Positions 38,771 through 61,311 of a DNA stretch of 64,000 bases are shown piece by piece. This stretch comes from Escherichia phage vB_EcoM_005. Numbering within the stretch: position 1 is the stretch's first letter; each line of letters starts with the position of its first letter. The stretch lies in the sequence record MK295203; one strand, written 5' to 3'. The notes under the pieces were generated by a model, which was not told the DNA's origin, did no database searches, and saw only the letters and a program-made list of their open reading frames with translations. Position numbers and translations under genes: made by a program.

Positions 38771-40241
38771 GTTAAAGAAAGTAACGTATAAAAATATTAT
38801 GTCGGTAGGCCAGCAACCTATTACAATCCAACTTGATAAGGTCCAAAAGACCTTAGTCACCGGTAAAAATGGCGCTGGGAAATCTACGTTCCTTGAAGCC
38901 GTTACATTTGCTCTGTTCGGTAAGCCTTTTCGTGATGTTAAGAAAGGGCAATTAATTAACTCAAGTAATAAGAAAGACCTTTTGGTCGAACTGTGGATGG
39001 AATATGATGGCAAAGAATACTACATCAAACGTGGGCAAAAACCCAACGTTTTTGAAATCTCTTGTGACGGTGAACGTCTTGATGAATCTGCCAGCAGTAA
39101 AGACTTCCAAGCGGAATTTGAACAGCTTATCGGAATGTCCTACACAAGCTTCAAACAGATTGTCGTACTTGGTACAGCAGGGTATACCCCTTTCATGGGT
39201 TTGTCGACCCCTGCGCGAAGAAAGCTCGTCGAAGACCTCTTAGAGGTTTCTGTATTAGCGGATATGGATAAGCTGAACAAATCTTTGATTCGTGAGACTA
39301 ATAGCCAAATCCAAGTAATCGACGTTAAACAGGATTCTATTACCCAGCAAATTAAAATTTATAATGACAACGAAGAACGTCAGCGTAAATTATCCGGGGT
39401 CATCGTCGATGATGACCCTAGCGACTCTATGAGTGACCTGAGTAATAAAGGATTTGCAATCAAGAATGATATGGCAACCTTTACTAAGGTCGTGAAATTA
39501 TACGAAACCGGCGGTAGTTGTCCTACATGTATGCAAGGATTGGAAGAGCACGGAAATATCCTTACTAAAATTAAGGATAAGAATTTTGAGCTTCAAAAAT
39601 CTTTGGATAAGATTAATGAGCAGTACCAAGAACTCAAGCTCATTAAGGACCAAGTAACCGAACAACGTAATAAAGCGTTGGCTATTAAATCTCAGATAGC
39701 TACTCATAAGCAACAAGCCATTACTGCCGTAGAGAAAGCTAAAAAAGTTAAAGTATTAATCGACCAAGCAGCTGCTGAGTTCGTAAGTAATGCCGAAGAG
39801 ATTGCCGCGCTTCAAGCAGAGCTTGATAAAATCGTCTCTACCAAATCGTCCTTAGTAATGGAAAAATATCATCGTATTATGGAAGCCGACTACGTCTTTA
39901 CACTGGACGAAGAGTTCAATGAGACGATTAAATCACGTGGACGTGAAGACTTTAGTTATGCTTCATTTTCACAGGGTGAGAAAGCACGTATTGATATCGC
40001 ACTACTTTTTACATGGCGTGATATTGCTTCTAAGGTATCAGGTGTTAATATCAGCACGTTAATTCTTGATGAGGTATTTGACAGTGCTACTGACGCTGAA
40101 GGCGTTAAGACCATTGCAACCATCTTGAATAGCCTTGAGGATACGAACGTGTTCATTATTTCTCACCGAGACCATGACCCACAAGCTTATGGCCAGCATC
40201 TTCAAATGAAGAAAGTTGGACGATTCACGGTGATGGAATGA
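38757..40241 (+). CDS. 46: recombination endonuclease subunit gp46 (Rad50/SbcC-like ATPase)
   Basis: Walker A GKNGAGKST, coiled-coil middle, signature/Walker B FSQGEKARIDIALLF...LILDEVFD; matches recalled T4 gp46 ends. Confidence 0.9.
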   Translation: MKTFKLKKVTYKNIMSVGQQPITIQLDKVQKTLVTGKNGAGKSTFLEAVTFALFGKPFRDVKKGQLINSSNKKDLLVELWMEYDGKEYYIKRGQKPNVFEISCDGERLDESASSKDFQAEFEQLIGMSYTSFKQIVVLGTAGYTPFMGLSTPARRKLVEDLLEVSVLADMDKLNKSLIRETNSQIQVIDVKQDSITQQIKIYNDNEERQRKLSGVIVDDDPSDSMSDLSNKGFAIKNDMATFTKVVKLYETGGSCPTCMQGLEEHGNILTKIKDKNFELQKSLDKINEQYQELKLIKDQVTEQRNKALAIKSQIATHKQQAITAVEKAKKVKVLIDQAAAEFVSNAEEIAALQAELDKIVSTKSSLVMEKYHRIMEADYVFTLDEEFNETIKSRGREDFSYASFSQGEKARIDIALLFTWRDIASKVSGVNISTLILDEVFDSATDAEGVKTIATILNSLEDTNVFIISHRDHDPQAYGQHLQMKKVGRFTVME

Positions 40242-40933: not shown

Positions 40934-41632
40934 ATGAAATTCTCTAAAGAAACTCTGAACATTCTGAAAAACTTCTCCGGTATTAACCCAGGTATCATGC
41001 TTAAACCTGGTAACACTATTCTAACTCGTTCAGTAACGGGTGCAAGTTATGGTGAAGCTACTGTAAATGACACCTTTGATATCGAAGCCGCAATTTATGA
41101 TTTGAACGGCTTCTTAAGTATTCTGTCATTGGTATCTGATAGTGCTGAAGTTTCGGTAAGTGAAGACCAAACCACTTTAATTATTAAAGACCAACGTTCA
41201 ACTATTAAGTGGCCTATTGCCGACCCAAGCACAATTGCATTCCCAAGCAAAGCTATTCCGTTCCCAGTGGCTGAAGTTATTTTTGACCTTAAAGCTGAAG
41301 ATTATCAACAGTTGATGCGGGTGTCCTCTGGACTGAGTATTGATACATTTGCTATTACTGTAGACAATGGTAAAATTGTAATCAATGGTTACAAACAAGT
41401 TGATGATAAGGACCTGGCACGCCCATTGTATTCCTTAGTGGTTGCAGACCATGATGGCCCTGAATTCAAATTCATTATTAACAAAACTAATATGAAAATG
41501 ATGCCGGCCGATTACCATGTTCTGTTATGGGCACGCGGTGAAGGTCAGGACGCTCGTTTCGCTGCTAAGTTTGAAGGTTCACAAGCTTCTTACGTATTAG
41601 CTATGGAAGCAGGCTCAAGCCACTCGTTCTAA
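40934..41632 (+). CDS. 45: sliding clamp gp45
   Basis: NFSGINPGIMLKPG..ILTRSV.G..YGEA...D..D.EAAIYDLNGFLSILSLV matches recalled T4 gp45; 232 aa. Confidence 0.95.
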   Translation: MKFSKETLNILKNFSGINPGIMLKPGNTILTRSVTGASYGEATVNDTFDIEAAIYDLNGFLSILSLVSDSAEVSVSEDQTTLIIKDQRSTIKWPIADPSTIAFPSKAIPFPVAEVIFDLKAEDYQQLMRVSSGLSIDTFAITVDNGKIVINGYKQVDDKDLARPLYSLVVADHDGPEFKFIINKTNMKMMPADYHVLLWARGEGQDARFAAKFEGSQASYVLAMEAGSSHSF

Positions 41633-42096
41633 TGTATATATGTTATCATAATACGATAACCAACACTAAAACCAAGTGTGTCTATCATTATTTTGGTAGA
41701 CACCGTGTTACTGCTGAAGAATACTACGGTACAGGTAAGTTTGTTAAGAAATGCAAACGAGAAAATGCTATTACTCCAGGTCTTTGGGAGTTTTGTGTTG
41801 AAGTTATCCATACAGTGGATACGTTTAAAGAAGCCAAGATTATTGAAGAAGAGCTTGTTAAAGAAGGCATATCAAAATATGGTATCCTTTGTGTTAATAA
41901 GAATCCTGGTGGTGATGGCGGTGTGGATTACCACACCGAAGAATCTAAACGTAAAATGTCAGAAACTAGAACAGGAAAATCAAGAATATTTTCCGAAAGT
42001 CATAAAGAAAATTTAAGTAAACGAGCCAGAAAATACTCTGATGTTTGGTCCGAACCTGTATATTCAAATCTTAAAACCATTTGGCTGGAAACAGGT
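41632..42096 (+). mobile_element. GIY-YIG endonuclease-like module, in-frame with downstream gene 44 (no stop codon)
   Basis: CVYHYFGRH...YYGTGKF (GIY/YIG), FCVEVIH..EAKIIEEELV, NKNPGG, then NUMOD3-like HTEESKRKMSETRTGKSR...SESHKENLSKRARKY; ATG overlaps gene 45 stop. Confidence 0.55.
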
Positions 42097-43068
42097 ATGT
42101 TATTAAATGGTTTAACTATTAATGAAAACGACTTCATGTGGGAACAGAAATATCGTCCAGGTACTTTATCTGAGTGTATTCTGCCTGCGCATGATAAAGA
42201 AACCCTCCAAGCCATTGTTAATAAGGGCCTAATCCCTAACATTATCCTAGTCTCTGCTTCACCAGGCACAGGTAAAACTACCGTAGCTAAAGCATTGTGT
42301 GCTGATACAAATTCAGATATGCTGTTTGTTAACGGTTCTGACTGCCGTATTGATTTCGTTCGTAACGAACTTACTCGTTTTGCATCTTCTAAATCTATCG
42401 AAGGTAAGCGTAAGGTAATTGTTATCGACGAATTCGACCGCGCTGGTGTTGCTGAAGCTCAACGTCACCTTCGTTCGTTCTTAGAAGCCTATTCCTCAAA
42501 CTGTTCTGTAATTATTACAGCAAACAATATTGATGGTATTATCGGTCCACTTCAATCCCGTTGTCGTGTTATTAAATTTGGTGAAGCCACTCCAGCCGAC
42601 CAAACATCCATGATGAAAGAAATGATTCATCGTGCTGTAGCAATCTGTAAAAACGAAAATATCGAAGTCGAAGACCTTAAAGTTATTGCCGCTTTAGTTA
42701 AACAAAACTTTCCTGACTTCCGTAAAACAGTTAACCAACTGGACCGTTACTCATCCAGTGGTAAAATCGATACAGGCATTTTGAGTATTGTAATGAATAC
42801 CAATTCGCCTATCGATGAAGTAGTGGCTGCACTTAAAGATAAAAACTTTAAAGAACTCCGTGCATTAGCTCCACGCCATGTCAATGACTATTCCAACTTT
42901 ATTATGTCACTGGCTAACGAACTCTATGGTAAATTGCCTGGACCAAGCATTGTTAGAATGTATGAAATTGTCGGTGAAAATAACCAATACCACGGTATTG
43001 CGGCTAACCCAGAAATTCACATGACTTATCTGTTCATCCAACTTGCTCTGGAGCTCCAATGGCTATAA
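42097..43068 (+). CDS. 44: clamp loader large subunit gp44 (coordinates from internal ATG)
   Basis: EQKYRPGTLSECILPAHDKET, Walker A SPGTGKTT, VIDEFDR, SRC motif QSRC; near-collinear with recalled T4 gp44. Confidence 0.9.
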   Translation: MLLNGLTINENDFMWEQKYRPGTLSECILPAHDKETLQAIVNKGLIPNIILVSASPGTGKTTVAKALCADTNSDMLFVNGSDCRIDFVRNELTRFASSKSIEGKRKVIVIDEFDRAGVAEAQRHLRSFLEAYSSNCSVIITANNIDGIIGPLQSRCRVIKFGEATPADQTSMMKEMIHRAVAICKNENIEVEDLKVIAALVKQNFPDFRKTVNQLDRYSSSGKIDTGILSIVMNTNSPIDEVVAALKDKNFKELRALAPRHVNDYSNFIMSLANELYGKLPGPSIVRMYEIVGENNQYHGIAANPEIHMTYLFIQLALELQWL

Positions 43069-44199: not shown

Positions 44200-46812
44200 A
44201 TGCAAGAATTCTATTTGACAGTCGAACAAATCGGTGATAATATTCTCGAACGTTACATCGATAAAAATGGTAACGAACGTAGTCGTGAAGTTCCTTACAA
44301 GCCTACAATGTTTATGCATGCTAATCCAGAGCAAGCCGTAAAATACATTGATATCTATGGTAAGGGTTGTGTTAAGAAAGAATTCGACTCTATGCGTGAT
44401 GCATCCCAATGGATGAAACGTATGGACGATATGGGTCTCGAAGCCCTGGGTATGGACGACTATAAATTAGCCTATTTGTCTGATACCTATCGTAAAGAAA
44501 TCAAATACGATTCTTCTAAGATTCGTATTGCTAACTTCGACATCGAGGTAACATCTCCTGATGGATTCCCTGAACCAGCTCAGGCTAAACATCCTATCGA
44601 TGCCATTACCCACTACGACTCGATTGACGATAAATTCTATGTATTCGACCTTTTAGTTTCACCTTATGGTACCGTTGAAGAGTGGTCTATTAAAATCGCT
44701 GAGAAACTCCAAGAAGAAGGTGGTGACGAAGTTCCACAAGAAATCATTGACAAAATCGTTTATCTTCCGTTTAATTCCGAAGAAGAAATGATGCTTGAGT
44801 ATCTGAATTTCTGGCAGCAGAAAACTCCTGTTATTTTGACTGGTTGGAACGTTGAGTCGTTTGACGTACCATACGTTTATAACCGTCTGAAAAATCTGTT
44901 TGGTGAGAACACTGCTAAGCGATTAAGCCCACACCGTAAGACTCGTGTTAAAGTTATCGAGAACATGTATGGTGCTCGTGAAATTATTACACTGTTCGGT
45001 ATCTCTGTTCTGGATTATATCGACCTTTATAAAAAATTCAGCTTTACCAACCAGCCTTCTTATTCTTTGGATTATGTTTCTGAATATGAATTGAAAGTAG
45101 GTAAGTTGAAATATGATGGTCCAATCTCCAAGTTACGTGAGACGAACCACCAACGATATATTTCCTATAACATTATCGACGTATATCGTGTAGTGCAGAT
45201 TGATATGAAACGCCAGTTCATTCTTCTGAGTTTGGACATGGGTTATTATGCTAAGATGCAGATTCAGTCGGTGTTCAGTCCAATTAAGACTTGGGACGCT
45301 ATTATCTTTAATAGCCTTAAAGAACAAGGCAAGGTCATTCCACAAGCTCGTTCACACGTGGTCCAACCTTATCCTGGTGCTTTCGTTAAGGAACCTATTC
45401 CTAACGCATACAAATATGTAATGAGTTTTGACCTTACATCTCTGTACCCGAGTATTATTCGACAAGTGAATATAAGCCCAGAGACCATCGCAGGCACATT
45501 CGCTAATGCACCGATACATGAATATATTGCCGGAACAGCTCCGCGTCCTAGCGACGTCTACAGTTGCTCTCCTAACGGCATGATGTACTATAAAGACCGT
45601 GATGGTGTGATTCCTACAGAAATCACTAAGGTGTTCTTACAACGTAAAGAACATAAAGGTTATATGCTTGCAGCTCAACGTAATGGCGAGTTAATTAAAG
45701 AAGCATTAGAAAATCCTAATCTGTCAGTTGATAGTCCACTGGATATCGATTATCGTTTTGACTTCTCTGACGAAATCAAAGCCAAGATTAAAACGCTGTC
45801 AGCACCTTCTTTAAAAGAAATGTTGTTCAGAGCCGAACGTACTGAAGTCGCAGGTATGACTGCTCAGATTAACCGTAAGTTGCTTATCAACTCCCTTTAT
45901 GGTGCACTTGGTAACGTATGGTTCCGTTACTATGACCTCAGGAACGCAACTGCAATCACACTGTTTGGTCAAATGGCCCTCCAATGGATTGAACGTAAGG
46001 TTAACGAATATCTGAACAGCGTGTGTAAGACTGAAAATCAGAAGTTCGTGCTCTATGGTGATACTGACTCCATTTATGTTAAGGCAGATGCAATCATCAA
46101 TAAAGTAGGCGAAGATAAATTCCGTGACACTAACCACTGGGTCGACTTCTTAGATAAATTTGCACGTGAACGTATGGAACCGGCTATTGATGCAGGCTTC
46201 CGTGAGATGTGCGAGTACATGAACAACAAACAACACTTGATGTTCATGGACCGAGAAGCTATCGCAGGTCCTCCACTTGGTTCTAAAGGTCTTGGTGGAT
46301 TCTGGACAGGCAAGAAACGTTATGCACTTAACGTTTGGGACATGGAAGGCACTCGTTATGCCGAACCACACTTGAAAATCATGGGTCTCGAAACTCAGAA
46401 ATCAAGTACACCTAAAGCGGTTCAGAAAGCTCTGAAAGAATGTATCCGTCGTATGCTTCAGGAAGGCGAGGCATCTTTGCAAGAATATTTCAAACAGTTT
46501 AATAAGGAATTTAACGAACTGGACTATGTAAGCATTGCAGCAGTATCCAGTGCTAACAACATCGAGAAATATAATGAAGGCGGATTGGTATATGTACTGC
46601 CACTTAAAGAAGGCAACCCATTCGGTGAAGCCTGTATGGCATGGCCGTCAGGTATTGAACTTCCGATTCAGATTCGTGACCAAGTCCTCCGTTGGATGGA
46701 CTACAACGTACTGTTCCAAAAGACCTTTATCAAGCCTCTGACTGGTTTTACCGAGTCTGCTAAAATCGACTACGAGAAAAAAGCAACATTATTTGACATG
46801 TTTGACTTTTAA
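44200..46812 (+). CDS. 43: DNA polymerase gp43 (family B)
   Basis: exo motifs FDIEV, YNIID; pol motifs DLTSLYPSII, KKRY (GKKRYALNVWDMEG), YGDTDS; very close to recalled RB69/T4 gp43. Confidence 0.95.
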   Translation: MQEFYLTVEQIGDNILERYIDKNGNERSREVPYKPTMFMHANPEQAVKYIDIYGKGCVKKEFDSMRDASQWMKRMDDMGLEALGMDDYKLAYLSDTYRKEIKYDSSKIRIANFDIEVTSPDGFPEPAQAKHPIDAITHYDSIDDKFYVFDLLVSPYGTVEEWSIKIAEKLQEEGGDEVPQEIIDKIVYLPFNSEEEMMLEYLNFWQQKTPVILTGWNVESFDVPYVYNRLKNLFGENTAKRLSPHRKTRVKVIENMYGAREIITLFGISVLDYIDLYKKFSFTNQPSYSLDYVSEYELKVGKLKYDGPISKLRETNHQRYISYNIIDVYRVVQIDMKRQFILLSLDMGYYAKMQIQSVFSPIKTWDAIIFNSLKEQGKVIPQARSHVVQPYPGAFVKEPIPNAYKYVMSFDLTSLYPSIIRQVNISPETIAGTFANAPIHEYIAGTAPRPSDVYSCSPNGMMYYKDRDGVIPTEITKVFLQRKEHKGYMLAAQRNGELIKEALENPNLSVDSPLDIDYRFDFSDEIKAKIKTLSAPSLKEMLFRAERTEVAGMTAQINRKLLINSLYGALGNVWFRYYDLRNATAITLFGQMALQWIERKVNEYLNSVCKTENQKFVLYGDTDSIYVKADAIINKVGEDKFRDTNHWVDFLDKFARERMEPAIDAGFREMCEYMNNKQHLMFMDREAIAGPPLGSKGLGGFWTGKKRYALNVWDMEGTRYAEPHLKIMGLETQKSSTPKAVQKALKECIRRMLQEGEASLQEYFKQFNKEFNELDYVSIAAVSSANNIEKYNEGGLVYVLPLKEGNPFGEACMAWPSGIELPIQIRDQVLRWMDYNVLFQKTFIKPLTGFTESAKIDYEKKATLFDMFDF

Positions 46813-53133: not shown

Positions 53134-53455
53134 TTTATCTGATTTAGATAATTTCGTTAAAGATACCGAAGAGGGTCCTAGTGACCCTCGGTATTATGAG
53201 AAATCATTAGATATAATCCGTAAGTCAATGGGTTCTGTTAAGCAGGAAATTATGCTTACTTTACCCGATGGCACTGCTCACATCGTTTATGTGATGAATA
53301 TTGTTATTGAGAAAGATGGAAAAGTGTCGGTTGATTTCGGAACACCTTCCGAAGACCGAAAAGAAGAGCTAGCGCTTCATGTAGAAAAATGTGTTACAAT
53401 GCAAATACAAGAAGAACTGGATAAAATTAAATCTAAGAGGTGGTGGAAATGGTAG
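53126..53455 (+). CDS. 40: gp40-like head vertex assembly protein (synteny)
   Basis: 109-aa ORF between uvsX and 41. Confidence 0.5.
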   Translation: MTDLSDLDNFVKDTEEGPSDPRYYEKSLDIIRKSMGSVKQEIMLTLPDGTAHIVYVMNIVIEKDGKVSVDFGTPSEDRKEELALHVEKCVTMQIQEELDKIKSKRWWKW

Positions 53456-54881
53456 AAACTATTTTGGCTCAACTGCTAGGCAATAGTGATTATTTCACTA
53501 AGGTCTGGCCTTATATGAATGATTCTTATTTTGACCAGGGTCCTGCAAAGACCCTTTTCAAAGAAATTAAAAAACACGTCAATGAATATAATGCAGTGCC
53601 TTCTAAGAACGCATTGAGCATTGCATTAGATAACAGTACGCTTTCAGAAGTTGAACATCAGGGCGCTAAAGAGCTTTTAAGTTCACTGAATGCCGGACCT
53701 GAAGACCAAGAATGGTTGGTTAAAGAGACGGAGAAATACGTTCAGAAAGCAGCGATGTATAATGCAACTTCAAAAATCATTGAAATCCAAACTAATGCCG
53801 ACCTTCCGGTTGAGCAACAAAATAGAAAACTTCCAGGTATTGGTGCTATTCCTGGATATCATGCGTGATGCATTATCGATTTGTTTCGATTCTGAATTAG
53901 GTCATGACTGGATGGATGACTATGAAGAACGATTCAAAAGTTATTCCGATAAAGCACGTAAGGTTCCGTTCCGTCTTAATATTCTGAATAAGATTACCAA
54001 GGGTGGTGCCGAGTTTGGTTACTGAAAACGTATTGTTGGCAGGAACAAACGTAGGTAAGTCTCTTGGCCTGTGTTCATTGGCTGCTGATTACCTTCAATC
54101 AGGTTACGATGTTCTTTATATCTCCATGGAGATGGCAGAGGAAGTATGTGCTAAGCGTATAGATGCCAACCTTCTGGATGTATCGCTGGATGATATCGAT
54201 GATGGTCATGTCTCTTGGCCTGAATATAAAGCTAAGATGGATAAATGGCGTTCAACTGCTACCTTAGGTCGTTTAAAGATTAAACAGTATCCTACTGGTG
54301 GTGCTAATGCCGATACCTTCCGTGCATTATTAAACGAATACAAGCTCAAACAAAACTTTGTGCCGCAGGTCGTTATCGTCGACTACTTGGCCATTTGTGC
54401 ATCGTCTCGTACTAAAGTTTTCTCTGAAAACAGTTACGGATTGATTAAGATGGTAGCCGAAGAACTACGTGGACTGGCAGTAGAGAAGAAATTATTGTTG
54501 TGGACAGCAGCCCAGACTACTCGTGGTGCGAACGTTGCGGCCGAAATCGATATGGCTGATATTGCTGAATCATTTGGTATTGCACATACTGCAGACTTCA
54601 TGTTAGGTGTGGTCGAGACAGAAGAGTTTGCTCAGATGGGTATGCAAATGGTTAAGCAGCTTAAATCTCGTTACGGCGATAAGAGCTACTACAACAAATT
54701 TAAGATTGGCGTTAAGAAAGGAAACCAACGTTGGTATGAAGTTGAAGACGATTCCAACCCAGGCCCGGTGAACACTGTTCGTGAGGCTACAGGTGAGATG
54801 AATCGTCAAGCCGAGGTCAATCGTCAGACGCGTGTTAATAGAAGTGATTTAGACGATTTAGCAGCATCTATCAAATTTTAA
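53440..54881 (+). pseudogene. 41: replicative helicase gp41 (DnaB-like), split across three frames by two +1 shifts
   Basis: segments 53440-53868, 53870-54025 and 54003-54881 each align with consecutive parts of recalled T4 gp41 (..GAIP|DIMR.. and ..GGAE|TG.. junctions); Walker A GTNVGKS in third segment. Confidence 0.85.
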
Positions 54882-57048: not shown

Positions 57049-57210
57049 ATGAAATCTTTTAAAGAAGTTATGAACGAAGATATGGTCGCAGGCGATGCAG
57101 GTGGTAATCCTACTGCTATTGCCTCCGGAACTACCTCAGGCGCAGTCGTCAACAAAGGGCCTGAACAAATCCCATCTAAAAAGCGTAAAGAAAAATCCGA
57201 AAACGAATGA
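57049..57210 (+). CDS. hypothetical small protein
   Basis: 53-aa ORF after SD aggag; in same frame as the downstream endonuclease fragment, separated by a single TGA. Confidence 0.35.
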   Translation: MKSFKEVMNEDMVAGDAGGNPTAIASGTTSGAVVNKGPEQIPSKKRKEKSENE

Positions 57211-57246
57211 TATAATGGCTCTATTAATTTAGAGTATGATAAGTAC

Positions 57247-57777
57247 ATGGGTTCAGGAGGGCCTTTAAGTAGGGCAAAGGAAAAATACGGGCTGGAAAAT
57301 TTCGAAAGAGAAATTCTAGAGTTTTTCCCTAATGAAGACCTAATGAACGAAGCTGAGGCAGCTATAGTAACTAAAGAATTTATTAAAAGACCCGATGTTT
57401 ATAATGCTGTGCCGGGCGGCAGAAGTTTTAGAGTAGGCCCGACGGAAAATTATGATTCTAAACGGCATTCAGAAGTCCAGATAAAAAGCTGGGATAATCC
57501 TGAAAAAAGGGCCAAGCAAGCCAAAACTATAAAAGCTATCGCATGGAAAGAATGGGATAATTTAGAGGAAGTAAAAATCCGACATAAAGAATCCTGCAGT
57601 AAAGCACAAAGAAAACATAAAGCCTGGAAAGATTATAATGTATTAAAAGAGATTTGGGTTAAATTAGGAAAACCTGGATACGGTAGGTTTAATAATGAAT
57701 TAATTAAGCTTGGTTACGAAAAAAGAAATTACCAAAGAATGGTAGATGCTTTTAATAAAGAGGAAGAACTAGTATGA
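57247..57777 (+). pseudogene. GIY-YIG homing endonuclease, N-terminally truncated
   Basis: begins at the YIG half (KYMGSGG...GLENFEREILEFF) with no GIY strand upstream; C-terminal module shared with the two HNH endonucleases. Confidence 0.5.
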
Positions 57778-58041
57778 GTTTTGTAGACAGAGAATTTGCT
57801 TTAAGAGCTTTTCAAACACTGCCAAAATTTAGACAAGTTACCGGAAGCGATTTTAAGCTTAACGCAAGGTGCCCTATTTGTGGTGACTCACAGAAAGACG
57901 AACATAAAGCTCGTTTTTGGGCTTATCCTGTGAATGATGGTGGCATTATGTTGCACTGCTTCAATTGCGATGCTAGTTTAGGAATTAAGAAGTATCTATA
58001 CGAATACGAGCCTGATTTATATCGTTAAGATGCCTGTCATC

Positions 58042-58245
58042 GAAAAGCTTAATTTCTGTGAACGATTAGATAGAATGCCAAACGACCATCCTATTATCAA
58101 ATATGTGACACTACGTTGCATTCCTGAAAACAAATGGAATCGTGAAAAGCTTAATTTCTGTGAACGATTAGATAGAATGCCAAAGGACCATCCTATTATC
58201 AAATATGTAACACTACGTTGCATTCCTGAAAACAAATGGAATCGC
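58042..58245 (+). repeat. tandem duplication, 2 x 102 bp (in-frame, 34 codons)
   Basis: 58042-58143 and 58144-58245 differ at ~3 positions. Confidence 0.9.
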
Positions 58246-58248
58246 TTA

Positions 58249-58597
58249 TGGTTTACTAAAGAATGGCCGGCATTGGTGAACTCTGTCAATCCAGGGACCT
58301 ATTCTAAATTGAAATGCCTGAGCCTCGTTTGGTTATTCCAATTTTCAATAAGAATAAACAAATTGAAAGTTTTCAGGGTCGAGCCTTACGTAAAGATGCT
58401 CCACAAAAATATATTACAATACGTTGTGGTTTACTAAAGAATGGCCGGCATTAGTTAACTCTGTGAATCCAGGGACCTATTCTAAAGAAATGCCTGAACC
58501 TCGTTTGGTTATTCCAATTTTCAATAAGAATAAACAAATTGAAAGTTTTCAGGGTCGAGCCTTACGTAAAGATGCTCCACAAAAATATATTACAATA
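58249..58597 (+). repeat. tandem duplication, 2 x ~172 bp, copies differ by a 2-nt indel
   Basis: 58249-58421 and 58427-58597; first copy has ctaaattgaaatg vs ctaaagaaatg. Confidence 0.9.
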
Positions 58598-58693
58598 AGT
58601 TGGTGTGGGTAATGGAAGGCCCTATTGACTCTTTGTTTGTTCCGAATGCAATAGCAATTACTGGCGGGTCGTTGGACTTGGCTATGGTTCCAT

Positions 58694-58788
58694 GTAAAGA
58701 AACTCGTGCCTGGGTAATGGACAATGAACCCCGCCATCCGTTGTAAAGAAACACGTGCCTGGGTAATGGACAATGAACCCCGCCATCC
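58694..58788 (+). repeat. tandem duplication, 2 x 46 bp with 49-bp period (frameshifting)
   Basis: gtaaagaaac(t/a)cgtgcctgggtaatggacaatgaaccccgccatcc at 58694 and 58743. Confidence 0.9.
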
Positions 58789-58817
58789 TGACACAATTAA
58801 GCGTATGCAACGATTAG

Positions 58818-59471
58818 TTGATGCTGGCGAAAGGGTTCTATTCTGGGACAAGAGGAAAATTAAGAGGTTCTAAGCGGTCTTTATCATATTATACGGAAGA
58901 ACACCATGTTATACCTAGATGTATGAATGGTTCTGATGATAAAAACAATTTAGTTGCTTTATTGCCAAGAGAACACTTTGTAGCTCATAGGCTTTTAACA
59001 AAAATATATCCCGAAGTAAAAGGTCTACATTATGCTGTTAATTTAATGAGATATAATAAAGGAGTTAAATTAACTAGTAGAACTATAGCCACGTTAAGAG
59101 AAAATAACGCTAAAGCATTTTCAGGAAAAAATAACCCGATGTTTGGTAAACCTTCCTGGATTAGAGGGATGAAAACTCCTGAAGAAACTAAAGCCAAAAT
59201 GCGCCTGGCTCATAAAGATAAAATTATATCTGATGAAGCCAAGGCCAATATGAGTAAAGCTAGAAAAGGAAGATTTAGTGGTAAAGATTCCCCTAGATAT
59301 GGTTTGCCAAATCCTAGGCGTGGAGAAATATGGAATAGTTACGATATGCTTTATGAATTATGGGTTTACAATAATAAACCTAAACGCACCAAATTTAATA
59401 AAATAGCTGTTGATAATGGATATCCTGATATTTGTTATCGACGAATGATAGAAAACTTTAATAGGAAATAA
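58818..59471 (+). CDS. HNH homing endonuclease (Mob-like); 5' end uncertain
   Basis: HNH motif EEHHVIPRCMNGSDDKNNLVALLPREHFVAH; NUMOD-like repeats; track ORF start overlaps primase-derived sequence. Confidence 0.65.
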   Translation: MMLAKGFYSGTRGKLRGSKRSLSYYTEEHHVIPRCMNGSDDKNNLVALLPREHFVAHRLLTKIYPEVKGLHYAVNLMRYNKGVKLTSRTIATLRENNAKAFSGKNNPMFGKPSWIRGMKTPEETKAKMRLAHKDKIISDEAKANMSKARKGRFSGKDSPRYGLPNPRRGEIWNSYDMLYELWVYNNKPKRTKFNKIAVDNGYPDICYRRMIENFNRK

Positions 59472-59475
59472 TATA

Positions 59476-59613
59476 ATGGCATTTTTTAACGAATGTAGTG
59501 GTTTGATTTCTGGTGTTGATAAAGCTGAGGAAGCTTATTTTAATGCTCTGATTCACGAAGATAATTTATTTATTCGCTTTAATCTAACAGTTTATAATTA
59601 TCTAACTTATTAA
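59476..59613 (+). pseudogene. dCTPase (gene 56) N-terminal fragment
   Basis: MAFFNECSGLISGVDKAEEAYFNALIHED then unrelated tail; 54 nt identical to the start of the next copy. Confidence 0.6.
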
Positions 59614-59636
59614 TGAATTGAAAAAGGAAAAATATA

Positions 59637-60056
59637 ATGGCACACTTTAACGAATGCGCAAACCTGATTGCTGGTGTTGATAAAGCTGAGGAAGCTTATT
59701 TTAATGCTCTGATTCACGAAGATAAGGACCCTCTGCAGGTTATGTTGCGTGAACAGAAAGATTGTATTGACGATGAATTCCGTGAACTTCTGACTTCCCT
59801 CGGTGAAATGTCTAAAGGTGAGAAAGATGCATCTGCTGTATGGAAAAAATGGAAAGCCCGTTACCCGGAAGCACAAGCCAAACCTATTTCAGAAATGTCT
59901 CCTGAAGACCAGCTTGAAATTAAATTTGAACTCATTGATATTATGCACTTCGTATTCAATATGGCTATTGGCTTGAATATGTCGGCTGAAGAAATGTTTA
60001 AACTTTATTACCTGAAAAATAAACACAACTTTGAACGCCAGGACAATGGATATTAA
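59637..60056 (+). CDS. 56: dCTP pyrophosphatase gp56 copy A (MazG-like), apparently lacking a middle segment
   Basis: MAHFNECA..I.GVDKA...DPLQVML then REQKDCIDDEFRELLTSLGEMS.GEK.ASAVWKKWKARY...EMSPEDQLEIKFEL.D..HFV.NM..GL.M.AEE.FKLYYLKNK.NF.RQD.GY, matching recalled T4 gp56 ends. Confidence 0.75.
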   Translation: MAHFNECANLIAGVDKAEEAYFNALIHEDKDPLQVMLREQKDCIDDEFRELLTSLGEMSKGEKDASAVWKKWKARYPEAQAKPISEMSPEDQLEIKFELIDIMHFVFNMAIGLNMSAEEMFKLYYLKNKHNFERQDNGY

Positions 60057-60106
60057 TTTCAAATCCGTTCTTAAAGAAAAGTTCCCGCAATGGGAACTTT
60101 TAGAAG
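60008..60106 (+). repeat. 99-bp direct repeat, copy 1 (3' end of dCTPase copy A plus junction)
   Basis: identical to 60430-60528. Confidence 0.9.
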
Positions 60107-60480
60107 ATAAACCTGAATATAACCGTCATCCTGATGACTTGGCTACTGCAGGTGAAGTTGTTGATTGGTTGCGCAATCAGAAAGATTATATTGATGATGA
60201 ATTCCGCGAACTTCTGACTTCTCTTGGTGGCATGAGCAATGGCGAAAAAGATGCGAGCGCTGTATGGAAGCCTTGGAAAGCTCAACATGCTGAACGTCGT
60301 GAAACCCTGATTAACGATTTGTCTCCTGAAGACCAGCTCGAAATTAAATTCGAAATGATTGATATTCTGCACTTTGTTCTGAATATGTTCCAAGGTCTTG
60401 GACTGACTGCTGAAGAAATCTTTAAACTGTATTACCTGAAAAATAAACACAACTTTGAACGCCAGGACAATGGATATTAA
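60046..60480 (+). CDS. dCTP pyrophosphatase gp56 copy B (diverged paralog/allele), lacking the N-terminal segment
   Basis: YNRHPDDLATAGEVVDWLRNQKDYIDDEFRELLTSLG... ; ~75 percent nt identity to copy A body, identical 99-bp 3' end. Confidence 0.7.
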   Translation: MDINFKSVLKEKFPQWELLEDKPEYNRHPDDLATAGEVVDWLRNQKDYIDDEFRELLTSLGGMSNGEKDASAVWKPWKAQHAERRETLINDLSPEDQLEIKFEMIDILHFVLNMFQGLGLTAEEIFKLYYLKNKHNFERQDNGY

Positions 60481-60528
60481 TTTCAAATCCGTTCTTAAAG
60501 AAAAGTTCCCGCAATGGGAACTTTTAGA
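60430..60528 (+). repeat. 99-bp direct repeat, copy 2
   Basis: identical to 60008-60106; runs into the start of the HNH ORF. Confidence 0.9.
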
Positions 60529-61311
60529 GGTCATGATTACTTAAAAATTATAGATAAGTATAAACTAAACGTCCATACCAAATCTAAAACTGAAGCTCAT
60601 CATATACTTCCGAAGTGTGCATTTCCAGAATACAGCGATTTTAAAATCTCTCCTTGGAATAGGGTGTATCTTCCTATATACCAACACATATATGTTCATT
60701 ATCTTTTGTGCTCAACTAAGGTGTCGGGTTTGCTTAATGCATTCCAGAGAATGACACTAACAAATAGTGCCCAGTTTAAGAAGCTTTCTGATTTAGAGAA
60801 AGACCTTACTATTAAGTTATGGGCCGATAAACGTGGGGAGTGGATAGAGCAAGACATTCTCCGTAAAAGAAAATCCTTTATGTATTCTAATTTTGATTTC
60901 TGGTATAATGACTGGATTTCGCGGGATATGCCTCGCTATCGAAGATATTGGGGAGTTTTGGTTGAAGAAAATAATCCGGAAGTTTTAGGTACCCACAAAA
61001 ATAGTTTATTGACAGTGGTAAAAGATTTTTGTTTGAGATACGCAGAAGAACATAATTTATCTGAAGAAGAAGTTTTGAGTCTTCAAAAATTAAAACAGTC
61101 TTCAGAAAAAGCTTTAAAAGATAAAGGAAAAACTTTAAGTAAAACTGCTAGAGGCAATCAACTCAAATGGAATTATGAAACTGAGCTTAGGAATTTATGG
61201 ATTGCTAATAACAAACCAAAATATGTGAATTTCAGAAAGCTAGTGGTTAGCTTAGGCTACCCGGATGAAAATTATATAAACATGATAAAGAGGTTTGAAA
61301 ATGGGTTCTGA
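60514..61311 (+). CDS. HNH homing endonuclease (Mob-like)
   Basis: HNH motif EAHHILPKC...NRVYLPIYQHIYVHY; C-terminal module similar to the 58818 endonuclease; ATG lies inside the 99-bp repeat. Confidence 0.65.
   Translation: MGTFRGHDYLKIIDKYKLNVHTKSKTEAHHILPKCAFPEYSDFKISPWNRVYLPIYQHIYVHYLLCSTKVSGLLNAFQRMTLTNSAQFKKLSDLEKDLTIKLWADKRGEWIEQDILRKRKSFMYSNFDFWYNDWISRDMPRYRRYWGVLVEENNPEVLGTHKNSLLTVVKDFCLRYAEEHNLSEEEVLSLQKLKQSSEKALKDKGKTLSKTARGNQLKWNYETELRNLWIANNKPKYVNFRKLVVSLGYPDENYINMIKRFENGF

Follow-up and report, generated by a model that had tools for sequence, protein, structure and literature searches.

The DNA that we analyzed (the window) is a stretch of 64,000 nt from Escherichia phage vB_EcoM_005 (sequence record MK295203). 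By megablast, the region belongs to a Dhakavirus (the JS98, IME08, Bp7, and C6 group of T4-type coliphages), with about 95% identity. The local gene order is 41, dmd, sp, 61.1, an insert, 61 (primase), a mobE-like HNH gene, 56 (dCTPase), a second HNH gene, and soc, which agrees with the order in annotated relatives (for coordinates, see Table 1). The insert holds a 176-codon ORF on the + strand, at 57247 to 57777, that carries the conserved GLENFEREILEFF, just as originally predicted. Three adjacent intergenic sites, namely, 61.1/61, 61/56, and 56/soc, each contain a free-standing endonuclease gene; the last of these sites is the reported position of segF in T4. C6 has none of the three and IME08 has mobE only, so the earlier description of 57 to 61 kb as a homing hotspot is a fair one. 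The second HNH gene encodes a protein with 87 to 94% identity to the products of HNH genes from other T4-type genera (phages DK-13, KM16, and Kha5h).

Table 1. Features of the window that are discussed in the text
Feature	Coordinates	Strand	Basis
Gene 61.1, 53 codons, conserved small T4-type gene; TGA stop at 57208-57210	57049..57210	+	PHROG 1823
Conserved 61.1-61 spacer TATAATGGCTCTATTAATTTAGAG, in phages with and without seg	57211..57234	+	Identical in C6, IME08, L007, and L008
Gap junction: one base (T) replaces 100 nt; net loss of 99 nt	57235..57235		L007/L008 comparison
3' 84% of Seg-type endonuclease gene	57236..57777	+	ORF 57247-57777 corresponds to P0001 residues 37-212
Retained C-terminal half of GIY-YIG catalytic domain (helix 1, strand 3, helix 2)	57247..57420	+	I-TevI 1MK0/1LN0 profile alignment, P0001 AlphaFold model, Foldseek
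C-terminal module of about 50 residues, W..Y..L..IW...KP...F......GY...Y..M	57610..57762	+	BLASTP, alignment A6, P0001 model
Primase gene 61, 5' end; divergent tract from 57774 to about 57980	57774..58028	+	ATGA overlap with seg
mobE-like HNH endonuclease gene, between 61 and 56	58818..59471	+	IME08 mobE; Pfam NUMOD3 and HNH; PHROG 655
Gene 56 copies: 5' fragment; copy with internal loss of about 100 nt; copy without 5' end	59476-59613; 59637-60056; 60031-60480		
Second HNH endonuclease gene, between 56 and soc	60514..61311	+	PHROG 655, E = 8e-28
Other net 99-nt gaps, first part	about 13143, 19928, 22139, 23753, 23870, 24613, 27012, 28544, 29881		IME08 comparison
Other net 99-nt gaps, second part	about 30453, 32920, 39398, 39875, 44017, 46586, 51602, 62810		IME08 comparison, and Bp7 within 30-54 kb

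Family identity and domain content of the ORF

The 176-residue product matches the profile of PHROG 314 ("homing endonuclease") with an E value of 1.6e-19. In tblastn searches, T4 segA (E = 4e-9 to 5e-8) and other annotated Seg/GIY-YIG genes are matched over 95% of the ORF length, and annotated homing endonucleases of Aeromonas and Serratia phages match at E values of about 1e-20. The best match in a collection of 5.8 billion proteins is P0001, a metagenomic protein of 212 residues; the whole ORF aligns to its residues 37 to 212 with 98% identity (E = 1.8e-110). An exact-identity look-up found no identical 176-residue protein on record. A Pfam search with the ORF by itself gives no match at E≤1, and the family assignment is therefore taken from its homologues: intact P0001, P0002, and P0003 score 25.6, 24.1, and 22.8 bits, respectively, and pass the 22.6-bit gathering threshold of Pfam GIY-YIG (PF01541). 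Extended by 12 upstream codons, the ORF matches Pfam SegE_GIY-YIG at E = 0.006 and 17.2 bits, which is below the cutoff of 25.

The AlphaFold model of intact P0001 has an N-terminal strand-strand-helix-strand-helix domain in the expected order, and the three-strand, helix-flanked I-TevI-like fold is found in this model of the intact relative, to which the structural comparison was confined. When the model is used as a Foldseek query, the I-TevI catalytic domain structures 1MK0 and 1LN0 are the top PDB matches. A family sequence profile aligns with the GIY, YIG, Glu75, and Asn90 positions of I-TevI, with an E value of only 0.012. Based on PHROG 314, the Seg homologues, P0001, and the I-TevI profile and Foldseek matches, we conclude that the ORF is, judged by homology, a real Seg-type GIY-YIG homing endonuclease gene without its N-terminal catalytic motifs; the Seg-type relationship that had been proposed for it is borne out by PHROG 314, T4 segA, and the 98% identity with P0001. 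The idea that the region is unrelated to GIY-YIG enzymes, for which the Pfam silence on the ORF alone and the subthreshold SegE_GIY-YIG match could be cited, has a negligible probability and can be regarded as ruled out, because P0001 passes the Pfam GIY-YIG threshold, PHROG 314 matches the ORF, T4 SegA and annotated Seg genes align to it, and both the family profile and the P0001 model rank the I-TevI catalytic domain first.

Alignment with intact relatives places both the GIY and the YIG motifs upstream of the ORF start. In intact P0001, the GIY motif is Y-L-Y (residues 10 to 12) and the YIG motif is Y23-I-G25 (residues 23 to 25), and in intact relatives both motifs precede a conserved D-x-Y-M-G-S-G. 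The ORF starts at the Met of this D-x-Y-M-G-S-G motif, which is P0001 residue 37, and all 36 N-terminal residues are absent. The original prediction had the ORF begin at the YIG half of the domain and lack only the GIY half. Its starting point was misidentified, as YMGSG is a separate downstream motif and not YIG; the loss of GIY is correct, but it is not confined to GIY, since YIG is gone too. The GIY motif (strand 1, with the catalytic Tyr; I-TevI Y6) is encoded within the 100 nt that are missing from the record, and the YIG motif (strand 2; I-TevI Y17-V-G) is likewise absent from the ORF. A "YNG" at 57211 to 57219, suggested by alignment A1 as a remnant of YIG, was rejected because its bases are the conserved spacer of phages that have no seg gene.

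What remains of the catalytic domain includes E37 and N53 of the ORF, which are invariant in alignment A4. E37 lines up with position 75 of I-TevI, which is Ala in 1MK0 because this structure is of the E75A mutant, and N53 (in "YN") lines up with I-TevI N90. I-TevI R27 falls in an insertion between YIG and GSG in the profile alignment and has no unambiguous equivalent. The ORF as given would be without strands 1 and 2 and both Tyr motifs; of the domain, only the half with the Glu and Asn remains, and the product would have no catalytic activity.

The C-terminal module of about 50 residues is common to the ORF and both HNH neighbors, as had been noticed earlier; BLASTP E values are 5e-9 with the mobE-like HNH ORF and 3e-6 with the second HNH ORF. 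In alignments, T4 SegA has the module as well. It is modelled in P0001 as three helices, with pLDDT values of 78 to 90. A profile search of the PDB with this module found nothing significant, that is, no solved homologue by sequence. It is presumed to bind DNA.

The insertion site between 61.1 and the primase gene

Upstream of the ORF lies gene 61.1, which aligns with residues 1 to 53 of 54 of PHROG 1823 (E = 2.5e-31), is annotated as 61.1 in IME08, and is 99 to 100% identical in its region to C6, IME08, and L007, one of two independent contigs (L007 and L008) that carry P0001. The original prediction saw here an unrelated 53-codon ORF in the same frame, separated from the endonuclease by a single TGA. 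The shared frame and the TGA end are correct, but the TGA is not the only separator, as 36 nt intervene. Nor is the TGA a significant break: it is the native stop of conserved 61.1 and is the same in C6 and IME08. For the same reason (PHROG 1823 and the relatives), we rule out read-through or polymorphism of this codon. The reading frame that 61.1 and the endonuclease ORF share is a coincidence, and 61.1 is not part of the endonuclease.

The first 24 of the 36 intervening nucleotides are the conserved spacer, which is identical in relatives without seg. In C6 and IME08, which lack seg, only 14 nt (CCCAAGGAAAAATA) lead from the spacer end ...TTTAGAG to the primase ATG, and comparison with these two phages shows that 539 nt at 57235 to 57773 stand in place of those 14 nt. 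The insert has no close DNA match among 50,697 phage records. Neither C6 nor IME08 nor any Dhakavirus found in GenBank has it, which is the presence/absence pattern of a stand-alone element. On L007 and L008, P0001 is encoded directly upstream of the primase gene, and in other T4-type contigs the genes for P0002 and P0003 (81% and 70% identity, respectively) are flanked by a 61.1-like gene and gene 61. Since P0001 to P0003 have the same position, they therefore define a free-standing seg family that is specific to the 61.1/61 junction. The family is rare, with five proteins among 5.8 billion. No close relatives were found in GenBank phages or IMG/VR; the relatives of P0001 in IMG/VR are distant, with 35 to 49% identity. 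The element is thus an unremarkable stand-alone seg gene that belongs to the known Seg class and occupies a previously unlisted insertion site.

Primase gene 61 starts at an ATG that shares bases with the seg stop (ATGA), and the corresponding Shine-Dalgarno sequence falls within the seg 3' end. The first ~205 nt of gene 61 (57774 to 57980, including the zinc-finger codons) have 74 to 77% identity to the same tract of C6 and IME08, compared with 96% identity to L007 and L008, which have seg; the flanks of the tract are 94 to 99% identical. This is the pattern expected if Seg targets this stretch in phages without seg and the carrier is both immune and co-converted. We regard the tract as a candidate Seg target-immunity or co-conversion tract.

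The missing 5' end and other gaps in the record

Comparison with L007 and L008 locates the loss precisely. Positions 57155 to 57234 match L007 1 to 80, and positions 57236 to 58025 match L007 181 to 970. The sequence is the same as that of both contigs through 57234; one unmatched base follows at 57235, and the match resumes 101 nt farther on. The missing 100 nt encode the seg start codon and codons 1 to 32, GIY and YIG included, and swapping base 57235 for L007 nt 81 to 180 yields an intact in-frame ORF of 212 codons. The gap begins at most 2 nt from the point at which haplotypes with and without seg diverge, and L007 and L008 begin and stop near both ends of the variable cassette. Such a branch point is where the boundary of a contig or unitig would be anticipated when the population is mixed. 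Microhomology-mediated deletion was considered because AATGA flanks the gap in L007, and it was rejected because the observed junction (GAG-T-ATGATAAG) differs from the predicted product. In exact searches of IMG/VR and JGI metagenomes, neither the truncated junction TTTAGAG-T-ATGATAAG nor an internal 31-mer was found; these searches yielded neither an independent instance of the truncated form nor this phage with an intact gene. No contig identical to the window but with an intact seg gene was found, the nearest being P0001 at the protein level (98%) and L007 at the DNA level (96%).

Net 99-nt gaps occur at about 17 further positions of the window relative to IME08, and those within 30 to 54 kb are also seen relative to Bp7, which provides a second, independent reference. 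With the seg gap included, the window has about 18. The typical signature is a window step of 2 against a reference step of 101. At about half of the junctions there is one base, mostly G or T, that matches neither side, which is easier to reconcile with a swap of 100 nt for one base than with a clean deletion. The gap positions have no periodicity, and there is no fixed filler base. The gaps fall in gene 43, gene 46 (twice, at 39398 and 39875), nrdC (just after the start codon), nrdH, and others. The gap at 46586 in gene 43 (DNA polymerase) is absent from all 47 of the 47 Dhakavirus records that cover the query: the 300-nt query spans 399 nt in each.

The record has other defects. Gene 41, for the gp41 replicative helicase (53440 to 54881), is in three frames relative to IME08 as a result of two +1 insertions, at 53853 and about 54019. 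At 41632 to 43068, a single 478-codon ORF combines a 192-codon hypothetical gene of Bp7 with clamp-loader gene 44; compared with Bp7, about 112 nt are lacking at 42101, so the seeming fusion is probably one more gap artefact.

Genes 61 and 56 form a patchwork between 58026 and 60528, in which stretches of 83, 55, 438, and 101 nt are missing and imperfect tandem copies occur at offsets of 102, 178, 49, 162, and 424 nt, with 82 to 98% identity. The pieces match different alleles: some are IME08-like (98 to 99%), some C6-like, some L007-like (96%), and some like another contig, L009 (85%). The joins lie at 58025, 58143, 58422, 58598, 58740, 58852, and 59565. No such tandem repeats were found elsewhere in the window. 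The primase gene is scrambled at 58026 to 58852: it lacks stretches of 83 and 55 nt and its 3' 141 nt, along with the spacer that comes next; its tandem copies comprise 101 nt present twice at 98%, a 178-nt-offset copy at 95%, and 47 nt present twice at 98%. From nt 39 on, the mobE-like gene has 99.4% identity to IME08 mobE; its first 38 nt are absent, and nt 39 is joined straight to a primase fragment, so that the "fusion" is one out-of-register join. The dCTPase gene (59457 to 60528) is present as three partial, diverged copies; the two at an offset of 424 nt are 82% identical, one being Dhakavirus-like and the other L009-like. We read the region of genes 61, mobE, and 56 as a chimeric assembly of several co-occurring haplotypes among which endonuclease presence is variable. 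The "fused" and broken 61, mobE, and 56 come from out-of-register joins of pieces from different alleles, and this is a property of the record and not erosion.

A probable intact seg gene and its counterparts in known systems

The missing seg 5' end is one of about 18 gaps of the same size, which is why we take it to be an artefact and not evolutionary decay; several of these gaps fall in essential genes, and a biological seg deletion is not expected to match their size. The truncation is most likely an artefact, a judgment that comes from the gap pattern and not from reads. With a probability of roughly 0.85, the phage itself would have, between 61.1 and 61, a complete free-standing GIY-YIG gene of the Seg type, about 212 codons long, and 100 nt from the left end of this insertion would have dropped out of the record, taking with them the start codon, GIY, and YIG and leaving a single base in their place. 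The 176-codon ORF would then be a leftover that merely happens to open at the Met in the conserved YMGSG motif. With other T4 Seg genes as a guide, the Seg enzyme may, during co-infection, cut the allele without seg near the 61.1/61 junction, and double-strand-break repair would then copy seg and its flanking DNA from the genome that has it. In genomes with seg, the diverged start of gene 61 (~205 nt) would protect the carrier from its own enzyme and would show where co-conversion took place. The original prediction had placed the elements at different stages of decay; this does not hold, as the same type of gap recurs about 17 more times, including in essential genes. The recurring 99-nt gaps, the gene 41 frameshifts, and the scrambled 61 and 56 argue against a truncation that belongs to the phage genome itself.

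Real decay does exist in this seg family, and this counts against an artefact. Degeneration of homing endonuclease genes is a known process. P0004 (131 residues), encoded at the same 61.1/61 site, has an in-frame internal deletion of 79 codons from a P0002-type seg, and it is real erosion of the family. P0004 was seen in two Logan samples (L018 3001-3396 and L019 3001-3396), and a third sample from that series (L010) has an intact gene. It would thus be conceivable that the window contains a genuine 5'-truncated seg pseudogene, produced by a biological deletion of the promoter-proximal 100 nt and with its 3' end kept for the ribosome binding site and start of primase. The sequence as given is without GIY, YIG, and the native start codon, the known degeneration of such genes and the internally deleted P0004 from other samples provide precedents, and the junction was not found elsewhere, so nothing directly contradicts a pseudogene. 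Nevertheless, we consider it unlikely, because the replacement of 100 nt by 1 nt, a net loss of 99, is the same as at about 17 other gaps, a match in size that is very unlikely to arise by chance, and because the deletion begins at the haplotype branch point.

A still bolder alternative takes both the truncation and the neighboring imperfect tandem duplications as real. Repeated endonuclease breaks in the three-element hotspot, followed by template-switch repair from diverged co-infecting genomes, would have left a nuclease-dead Seg fragment that binds its gene 61 target, together with local segmental duplications. We hold this to be very unlikely. If it were true, the segmental duplications would echo the SegB-driven segmental amplification outlined in a 2026 report (PMC13096335).

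Another proposal takes the truncated ORF as real and supposes that its product is a protein without nuclease activity, which would retain the linker and the C-terminal module and might bind the Seg target near the gene 61 start and so give protection from homing or regulate primase. It would draw on the in-frame ATG, the intact and conserved C-terminal module, and an analogy with I-TevI, which has been reported to be a transcriptional autorepressor besides being a nuclease (PMC2988022). Every argument for an artefact applies to it; moreover, the ATG at 57247 is not preceded by a convincing Shine-Dalgarno sequence, no promoter-like site was found, the region around the ORF did not exceed the shuffled expectation when scanned for promoters and terminators, and the truncated form was not found in any other genome searched. 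We consider such a protein extremely improbable.

Under the preferred reading, with an intact gene in the phage and a defect in the record, the biological content is one more Seg-type endonuclease, notable only for its rare site upstream of primase and the clear diverged tract in gene 61. The consequence for data quality is broader. Given about 18 net 99-nt gaps, the gene 41 frameshifts, and the chimeric joins, "truncated," "fused," or "decaying" genes from this window are suspect until the reads are checked, and this includes the observations on mobE, primase, and dCTPase.

The catalytic domain of I-TevI (1MK0 and 1LN0) resembles the predicted fold of P0001 residues 8 to 76, with a Foldseek probability of 1.00, a TM score of 0.56 normalized to the target, an rmsd of 2.6 to 2.8 Å, and 30% identity. 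In contrast, I-TevI is intron encoded, with a zinc-finger linker and a DNA-binding domain of its own, and the window ORF keeps only the Glu and Asn half of the catalytic domain. P0004 also differs from the window copy: its loss is internal and GIY and YIG are kept, whereas the window loss is a net 99 nt at the 5' end. A further parallel may be the intronless homing with marker exclusion of SegF (56/soc) and SegG (gene 32), for which, as here, the carrier allele has a diverged tract in a neighboring essential gene. Target-site immunity and co-conversion have been described for other Seg enzymes (PMC2988022); for the 61.1/61 element, the sequence alone suggests this link. The T4 Seg proteins (SegA to SegG) differ in several respects: the 61.1/61 site has no annotated seg in the T4, C6, and IME08 records examined, the SegA linker has NUMOD3 whereas none was detected in the linker of this family, and the window copy is without the 36 N-terminal residues, which is probably an artefact. 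The likenesses are an N-terminal GIY-YIG domain with the H-S-T...D-x-Y-M-G-S-G...K-Y-G..N-F..E-I-L pattern and, for SegA, the C-terminal W..IW..KP..F...GYP..Y..M module and 27 to 28% identity over 95% of the ORF. Like the T4 Seg genes, this gene stands free between conserved genes and is missing from close relatives.
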